A DNA stretch of 64,000 nucleotides. Origin: a virus (lineage: Duplodnaviria > Heunggongvirae > Uroviricota > Caudoviricetes). Below are positions 28,952 through 29,515 of this stretch, one piece after another (the first letter of the stretch is position 1; each line of letters opens with the position of its first letter). Location: the IMG/VR virus record IMGVR_UViG_3300025942_000001. The stretch is one strand, 5' to 3'. A model generated the notes under the pieces. It worked only from the letters and a program-made list of their open reading frames with translations. It was not told the DNA's origin and did no database searches. The translations under genes were made by a program, and so were the position numbers.

Positions 28952-29515
28952 CTACCCTTAATGGGTATTGTTAAATAGTTCGGCTTCCCGCGCTTTTGCC
29001 CGGATACACAAGTGTAAGCCCGAATGCGAATAGCATTGGTCACTAGGTTGGCTACTACGGTCCCAATCGACACGGCTATATGCGTGATTCGAGCCGTCAA
29101 TTACCTTGCTCATGTGCACATACTCTATGACGGTAAAGAGTTGGAAAGTGTGCACCGTAGGCGTTATTAATTGCGTATCTTCGGATAATGTGGAGTCGTT
29201 TGTACCACTTAACGTGGGATTGAATCAATGTTTATGCGGTCTACGGTGCCGAGAATGCCGGAACGCTAAGAATATTGACTATGCGACATGGAAGCATAAG
29301 CAATTGATAAGCGACCTTTAGGAGATAATAAAACCGGCGGTGAAATTTAGTGGTCTGACTGTGAAAGATCGGTCTAGAAATCCATTAGATATTATCGCTA
29401 AGAACGGGACAAATAAACAAAACCCGTTATACATTGGCCATATAAAGAGAATGTCTAAAGGGATTCTGACTAGTGCAGGCCACACAGTCCCCCGATGACG
29501 TTTCTCATTAACGAA
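28952..29515 (+). ncRNA. candidate large structured ncRNA 2 (~570 nt)
   Basis: No credible ORF. Stems GTGCACA/TGTGCAC (29114/29149), TATC-TTCG-GATA (29176-87), ACGGCT/AGCCGT, GCGTT/AACGC (29161/29262), AACGGG/CCCGTT, TGGCC/GGCCA. Confidence 0.65.

Follow-up and report, generated by a model that had tools for sequence, protein, structure and literature searches.

The 64,000-nucleotide (nt) window analysed here, by which the whole stretch of DNA is meant, is part of the complete 137.6-kb genome, with terminal repeats, of an uncultured soil phage recorded in IMG/VR. It holds an interval, 28952-29515, which is non-coding and part of which is a conserved structured RNA. The existence of a conserved, folded non-coding RNA on the + strand of this region is highly probable; the RNA is previously undescribed and matches no Rfam family. 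Its conserved core of about 340 nt (29097-29432, on the + strand like all features described below) contains the helices H1a, H1b, P2, P3, P6 and P7. The reading preferred here, at a probability of roughly 0.55, is that this core is a new structured RNA which would be released by tRNA-processing enzymes and act in trans. A first-pass annotation, made from the letters of the window, had proposed a large ORF-free RNA with multibranch domains. Covariation over three lineages bears out a large structured RNA, which lies on the + strand and starts at a tRNA-like element, yet the conserved unit amounts to ~340 nt and not to the full 564 nt.

The RNA family comprises four contigs in total, namely the window, two full relatives (L031 and L052) and one truncated relative (L045). 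L031 is a sister phage of 139 kb, in which the RNA is ~94-98% identical. Over 28953-29175 the two phages differ at 4 of 223 positions (98% identity), compared to 91% identity in the DNA of the flanking genes; 29176-29290 is largely replaced in L031, and 29291-29337 and 29395-29432 are retained. L045 was located via a 59%-identical homologue of the upstream 128-amino-acid (aa) protein. It exhibits a single mismatch in 103 nt over the leader hairpin, the tRNA-like element and the small hairpin hp0, then skips directly to the equivalent of 29097, and the contig stops within hairpin H1, of which it shows the 5' strand of H1a as GUGUGUC. L052, an 11.8-kb contig, was located by an exhaustive protein search via a 44%-identical homologue, and its copy of the RNA, 77% identical, lies 2.9 kb upstream of the gene for that homologue. 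When the 11.5-kb island of the window is compared to L052 by blastn, only 29101-29208 matches, at 77% identity (E 6e-18), and the protein that the two have in common is 44% identical. Nucleotide conservation of the RNA thus exceeds that of the neighbouring genes, both in the comparison with L031 and in the one DNA match with L052.

No open reading frame (ORF) overlapping 28860-29523 is longer than 71 aa, and the gene callers applied to the window's own contig leave 28860-29703 empty. In each of the three full members, the window, L031 and L052, stops interrupt every one of the six frames of the core, and its longest open stretches, of 19-74 codons, are not common to the members; in L052 no frame stays open for more than 44 codons. 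The absence of a conserved reading frame is the behaviour of a structured non-coding RNA, and the earlier description of the stretch as ORF-free therefore stands.

The core opens with an unpaired conserved leader, CCGUYAAUUACCUUGCKCAU (29093-29113), whose motif UUACCUUGC.CAUGUG is invariant in all four contigs. Hairpin H1 (29114-29155, loop AUGACGGUAA) follows and consists of an 8-base-pair (bp) stem (29114-21 with 29148-55) and a 5-bp stem (29122-26 with 29137-41), with a UGGAAA internal loop on the 3' side. All H1a cells of the alignment are paired. The pair C29119-G29150 becomes U-G in L031 and U-A in L052, and A29120-U29149 becomes U-A in L052, although the register of the latter pair in H1a was set by hand, MAFFT placing a gap there. 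The long-range helix P2 (29161-29174 with 29300-29312) closes the inner domain; 4 of its 11 pairs are changed on both sides, and 97% of the cells pair. RNAalifold finds P2 (13 bp) and P3 unaided, and P2 is present in both the minimum free energy (MFE) and the centroid folds of L052. The first-pass annotation had closed a multiloop at this place with GCGTT (29161-65) and AACGC (29262-66). Both segments are present in the window, yet the AACGC segment is replaced in L031 and L052, and covariation and RNAalifold favour P2 in its stead.

P3 (29176-29187, UAUC-UUCG-GAUA), with which the domain enclosed by P2 begins, is the tetraloop hairpin which the same annotation had pointed out. The hairpin is real and its position conserved; the UUCG loop is not, since L052 carries UAUCCC-CUUUU-GGGAUA and L031 CGACA-AUAUAAA-UGUCG. 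The position of P3 is thus constant while its sequence and loop differ wholly in L031; four of the five pairs are changed on both sides and 100% of the cells are paired. Within the inner domain (29188-29299), whose conserved junctions are rich in purines, the conserved motifs UGUGGAG (29189-95) and a GRGAARCA..GCAAU junction flank a variable middle. The motifs alone align across the window, L031 and L052, the middle being replaced between lineages. A 3-bp helix, P4 (29195-97 with 29285-87), changes its middle pair from U-A to A-U in L031, and is only tentative because RNAalifold does not recover it. The P6 hairpin (29336-29399) combines a conserved 6-bp base with a variable tip, so that its length falls from 64 nt in the window to ~33 nt in L031 and 24 nt in L052. 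All cells of its base are paired, six of them as G-U, and G29340-U29395 becomes C-G in L052; the pair probability in the window is 0.9-1.0. P7 (29403-29428) is a 6-bp stem with an A-rich loop, ACAAAUAAACAAAA, in which the motif ACAA..AACAAAA is conserved. Three of its six pairs are changed on both sides across L031 and L052, and it is the probable 3' end of the conserved RNA.

Of these helices, H1, P3, P6 and P7 were predicted in the window, and P2 was proposed from the comparison of the window with L031 (TA to CG, both pairs kept). L052 may serve as a test, since it was found after all five had been defined from the window and L031, and five of five helices (H1, P2, P3, P6 and P7) passed. In alignment A5 (H1a, H1b and P3) 98.1% of cells are paired with 5 two-sided changes, compared to 28-67% and 0-2 changes in slid controls. 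The corresponding values are 97.2% and 4 in A8 (base of P6, and P7; slid controls 33-47%, 0-2), and 98.2% and 9 in A9 (P2, P3 and P4; slid controls 26-50%, 0-1). None of 500 shuffles reaches the observed values of A9, a control which is not to be read as a probability. Four P3 pairs are counted in both A5 and A9, and the distinct two-sided pair changes hence number 14. The covariation check thus supports the helices (97-98% of cells pair, compared to 26-67% when slid), and compensatory changes of the kind that mark a structured RNA are found over three sequences.

Three further candidate pairings were tried and rejected. An alternative helix, 29153-69 with 29326-42, shows no compensation in L052; an outer CCU/AGG extension of H1 is not retained there; and a possible pseudoknot of UUACC (29101-05) with GGUAA (29132-36) would be of doubtful geometry, its two motifs showing no variation.

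The 5' boundary of the RNA is an element with the shape of a tRNA. In the window this is a D-armless tRNA-like element (28893-28951; fold z-score -2.1) with a 6-bp acceptor, a 6-bp stem bearing an 8-nt loop, a T arm with GGTTCGATTCC, and a discriminator A. L031 and L045 carry the same element at 100% identity, and neither ARAGORN nor the Rfam tRNA model calls it as a tRNA. The RNA starts directly after the discriminator base of such an element in all four contigs, although the element itself differs: the window and L045 have the D-armless form, whereas L031 has a tRNA-like element whose anticodon arm is long (z = -4.2), and L052 a 53-nt mini-cloverleaf. In L031 a 160-aa ORF and this second tRNA-like element are inserted between the D-armless element and the RNA (L031:4511-5121), and the junctions of the insertion fall at discriminator bases. 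The 160-aa ORF, read by eye, shows a phosphoribosyltransferase-like motif. Decayed tRNA genes were considered as the origin of the whole spacer and rejected: its body contains no tRNA-like match, and the T-loop motif occurs at 28930 only.

Further upstream, directly 3' of the stop codon of the 128-aa gene, lies a leader hairpin, AGUCU-GGCG-AGACU (28866-28879). Its pair U28870-A28875 becomes G-C in L031, a two-sided change, and its sequence is the same in L045 even though the adjoining protein is 59% identical. As a whole, 28866-28951 is identical in L045 save for one base in the unpaired spacer (28880). The identity of the leader hairpin and the tRNA-like element in L045 points to far stronger constraint, or to more recent exchange, than on the genes.

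The element is not isolated in L052, where five + strand T-loop motifs GGTTCGAYTCC (at 648, 1471, 1773, 4141 and 4672) occur within L052:600-4700, compared to 0.07 expected. They sit in the gaps between small genes, and ARAGORN calls no tRNA on that contig; the motifs look like tRNA-like punctuation of an early operon. In one of these elements (1393-1491) a long hairpin replaces the anticodon arm (z = -5.0). A cysteine-rich ORF of ~49 aa with many CxxC pairs (L052:1539-1689) occupies the space between two tRNA-like elements, a short distance upstream of the homologue of the RNA.

These arrangements suggest a mechanism for the preferred reading. The RNA would lie inside a rightward early transcription unit and would begin, in every relative, one base past the discriminator of an aberrant tRNA-like element. 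Cuts of the RNase P and RNase Z type by host enzymes could then excise it from the polycistronic transcript and so define its 5' end. Once free, the folded RNA may work in trans by binding proteins, as a scaffold or a decoy, rather than control one particular downstream gene. We infer release and trans action from this anatomy, and also from the observation that no one gene regularly follows the RNA. P7 is followed at once by the ribosome-binding site (RBS) of the next gene in L031, and by a gene start 28 nt beyond it in L052. The products of these genes are 58 aa in the window (29524-29700, downstream and outside the RNA), 75 aa in L031, and 75 aa in L052, the last aligning poorly (31% over a gapped alignment). 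A constant downstream gene family, such as would accompany a cis-acting leader or riboswitch, is therefore not found. The 58-aa ORF is left uncalled by the gene callers, yet it is probably a real small gene, since relatives (38-62% identity) occur in six other viral contigs, without the RNA upstream.

The main rival, possible though distinctly less probable, is that the same RNA works in cis, as a structured spacer of the early polycistronic mRNA which protects or positions the 5' end after excision of the tRNA-like element, or modulates elongation or termination. The genes on either side of it share one direction, no promoter or terminator consensus occurs within it, the next gene starts within about 30 nt of P7 in L031 and L052, and tRNA-like elements punctuate other small genes in L052. 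Against such a role, the downstream gene changes by lineage, an insert of 80 nt separates the RNA from the next RBS in the window, and 270-340 nt with at least six helices far exceeds the needs of a protective 5' hairpin.

That insert, module C (29433-29511), is absent from L031 and L052, and L031 also lacks the 58-aa gene. It holds the GAGAAUGUC/GACGUUUCUC hairpin of a switch that had been proposed at the RBS of the 58-aa gene. The local pairing foreseen near the 3' end, GAGAATGTC (29447-55) with GACGTTTCTC (29497-506), is indeed predicted, with a probability of 0.95-1.0. The switch itself finds no support, because the relatives lack both the insert that carries it and the gene downstream of that insert.

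At the 5' side, hp0 (28953-28967, UACCC-UUAAU-GGGUA; pair probability 0.7-0.97 in the window and L031) is present in the window, L031 and L045 and absent from L052, and does not vary among its carriers. The next 125 nt (28968-29092) form an optional domain, predicted to be multibranched and closed by CGGCU/AGCCG, which is 98% identical in L031 and missing from L045 and L052; L045 joins hp0, and L052 joins the tRNA-like element, straight to CCGUU..UUACC. To judge by this comparison, 28968-29092 and 29433-29511 are lineage-specific additions to the core. Contigs from four other runs, of soil, sediment and freshwater, exhibit the same modular gain and loss; in a contig of run X2 module C is represented by 29453-29511 only, joined to 29212 by 76 other letters. 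The sequencing runs listed, six in number, all consist of DNA contigs.

Several observations weigh against the preferred reading. The covariation comes from three full sequences and one truncated sequence, with few independent events. The gain and loss of modules implies that much of the 564 nt is dispensable, and the run X2 contig apparently lacks the 3' strand of P2 as well as P6-P7, H1 being retained. The L052 homologue of the core has an unremarkable folding energy (z = -0.38), and the MFE fold of L031 does not contain H1. In the window the whole spacer (28860-29523) reaches z = -2.0 on the + strand and -0.75 on the - strand, with values of -0.87 for the best-conserved 5' block (28953-29175), -2.86 for 29176-29523 and -2.78 for the core. 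Such moderate z-scores, together with helices drawn by eye, would not by themselves carry the claim.

The same facts could be taken to mean that the spacer is a non-functional mosaic of recombination leftovers, conserved through recent exchange alone. Close relatives differ by the gain, loss and replacement of modules, the family is tiny and the folding energies are weak. This explanation is nevertheless improbable, as at least 14 two-sided pair changes stay paired with almost no broken pairs, and no other DNA of the window's island can still be aligned to L052.

The strand on which the helices form bears on another possibility, namely that the element works at the level of DNA, for example as an origin of replication, as a site of packaging or recombination, or as a hairpin structure of single-stranded DNA. 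On the + strand the six helices have 125 of their 129 cells paired, compared to 111 of 129 on the - strand; the 15 G-U pairs fit the + strand only, which places the RNA there. In favour of a DNA element, inverted repeats do flank the replaced inner segment. The 15 G-U (G-T) pairs become A-C mismatches on the - strand, however, and are thus a poor fit to duplex-DNA cruciforms, and the core contains neither iterons nor an AT-rich unwinding element, so that a DNA-level role is very unlikely.

Least credible of all is that the stretch encodes one or more small proteins, for example at 29024-29170 (48 aa; 70 aa in L031) or 29106-29321 (71 aa): both ORFs are open in the window and the 70-aa version was picked up by one gene caller in L031, yet the start codon at 29024 lies inside the 125-nt insert, which L045 and L052 do not have, the window and L031 disagree at the C-termini, every frame of the core is closed in L052, the callers are silent on the window's contig, and the product has no relative beyond the window and L031 copies among 5.8 billion proteins.

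Known RNA families were searched for directly. A cmscan of the whole window against Rfam 15 at gathering thresholds returned two tRNA matches only, and at E <= 10 nothing overlapped the RNA over 24300-29800 or over positions 1-3000 of L052; the check suggested in the first-pass annotation thus matched no Rfam family to the RNA. Rfam 15 includes GOLLD, ROOL, OLE, HEARO, raiA, tmRNA (transfer-messenger RNA), RNase P, 6S, group I and II introns and YrlA.

The closest known things are ROOL and GOLLD, and the RNA belongs to neither. These are large, multi-helix, ORF-free RNAs, often borne by phages or prophages and typically located beside tRNA genes, with no known function (PMC5737381). The phage RNA is likewise large, multi-helix and ORF-free and adjoins a tRNA-shaped element. 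It differs in matching no Rfam 15 model at E <= 10 in the window or L052, in the size of its core (270-340 nt, compared to ~580-800 nt), in adjoining a tRNA-like element of aberrant form where those RNAs have a normal tRNA, and in having been seen in four contigs only.

Other RNAs are released by tRNA processing at an adjoining tRNA or tRNA-like structure, as in mitochondrial tRNA punctuation, MALAT1-mascRNA and the bacterial tRNA-linked spacer RNAs. The likeness lies in the tRNA-shaped element, with its acceptor stem and its T arm with GGTTCGATTCC, that abuts the phage RNA at the discriminator in four lineages, the cleavage being putative. In contrast to mascRNA, which defines a 3' end, the phage element lies 5' of the RNA, and a cut of the RNase Z type would make a 5' end. 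As in tmRNA, a larger folded RNA adjoins a tRNA-like part in which neither the D arm nor the anticodon is of the normal kind. Unlike that of tmRNA, however, this part is contiguous at the 5' side rather than built from both ends, and there is no tag reading frame; no tmRNA was found by ARAGORN or by the Rfam tmRNA models. Y-like RNAs (YrlA) of bacteria and phages, reported in actinophages too, combine a non-coding RNA with a tRNA mimic module. The phage RNA shares this combination and is much larger, with no Rfam match at E <= 10; no Ro/Rsr gene occurs among the neighbouring genes that were checked.

Searches for further members yielded little. Distant-mode blastn of the spacer against 50,697 phage records gave no match, and neither did tblastn of the 128-aa neighbour against phages. 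The RNA was absent from 28 loci with relatives of an upstream 387-aa gene and from 6 with relatives of the 58-aa gene (blastn, nhmmer, whole-record blast and covariance model R1, which spans H1 to P3), as well as from the contigs of P0007, P0008, P0010 and P0011. Pattern scans of IMG/VR returned the L031 contig only, together with one chance match (L046, coding, high GC); a scan of a single metagenome returned the L031 contig and one chance match (L044); and a scan of GTDB genomes for the RNA returned nothing. Word-index protein searches with the 128-aa, 70-aa and 72-aa products yielded L045 as the sole new contig.

In bacteria and phages, large folded RNAs with no assigned role are a rarity, and ribozymes, riboswitches and the ROOL/GOLLD cages have repaid study. 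The present RNA offers a covariation-backed fold of ~340 nt with a clear strand and, in its tRNA-like tag, a probable processing signal. Natural deletion variants mark its dispensable domains, and direct experiments thereby become possible. A broader tendency of these phages is indicated as well, whereby aberrant tRNA-like elements separate early genes. A bolder and rather unlikely proposal is that the early GC-rich block of the phage is such a punctuated operon and yields abundant free RNA, which might self-assemble or be catalytic in the manner of ROOL/GOLLD, or might serve as a decoy against host defence directed at tRNA or RNA processing, and would found a new class of actinophage RNA.

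The carriers are a small group of large, tRNA-rich soil phages, probably actinophages. Thirty ordinary tRNA genes lie upstream of the window and two aberrant ones within it, and the ribonucleotide reductase of the phage is 62% identical to those of 130-kb Streptomyces phages. One of the thirty ordinary tRNAs, outside the window (G000:C1:45379-45451), has according to ARAGORN the anticodon CTA and would read the amber stop. The RNA stretch is located in an 11-kb block with a G+C content of 0.45-0.55, compared to ~0.38 elsewhere, and the genes of this block are all rightward.

The first-pass annotation had further proposed a module shared with a second RNA upstream (its RNA 1). This echo amounts to one 9-mer, which also occurs at 52515 in a coding region (three matches, compared to 0.35 expected) and is degraded in the sister phage (GGA-AAAC); with model R1, no further copy comes up in either the window or the rest of the genome. 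The ORF-free segment 24480-25226, upstream of RNA 1, is 93% identical in L031, and 25226-25615, most of RNA 1, is replaced there, so that RNA 1 is mosaic too. In the interval between the two, at 26808-28410, the window has the 387-aa gene (phrog_2319) and a neighbour, neither of which the sister phage possesses; Streptomyces phage Zuko (43%) and many phages of Salmonella, Vibrio and Aeromonas carry relatives of the 387-aa gene.
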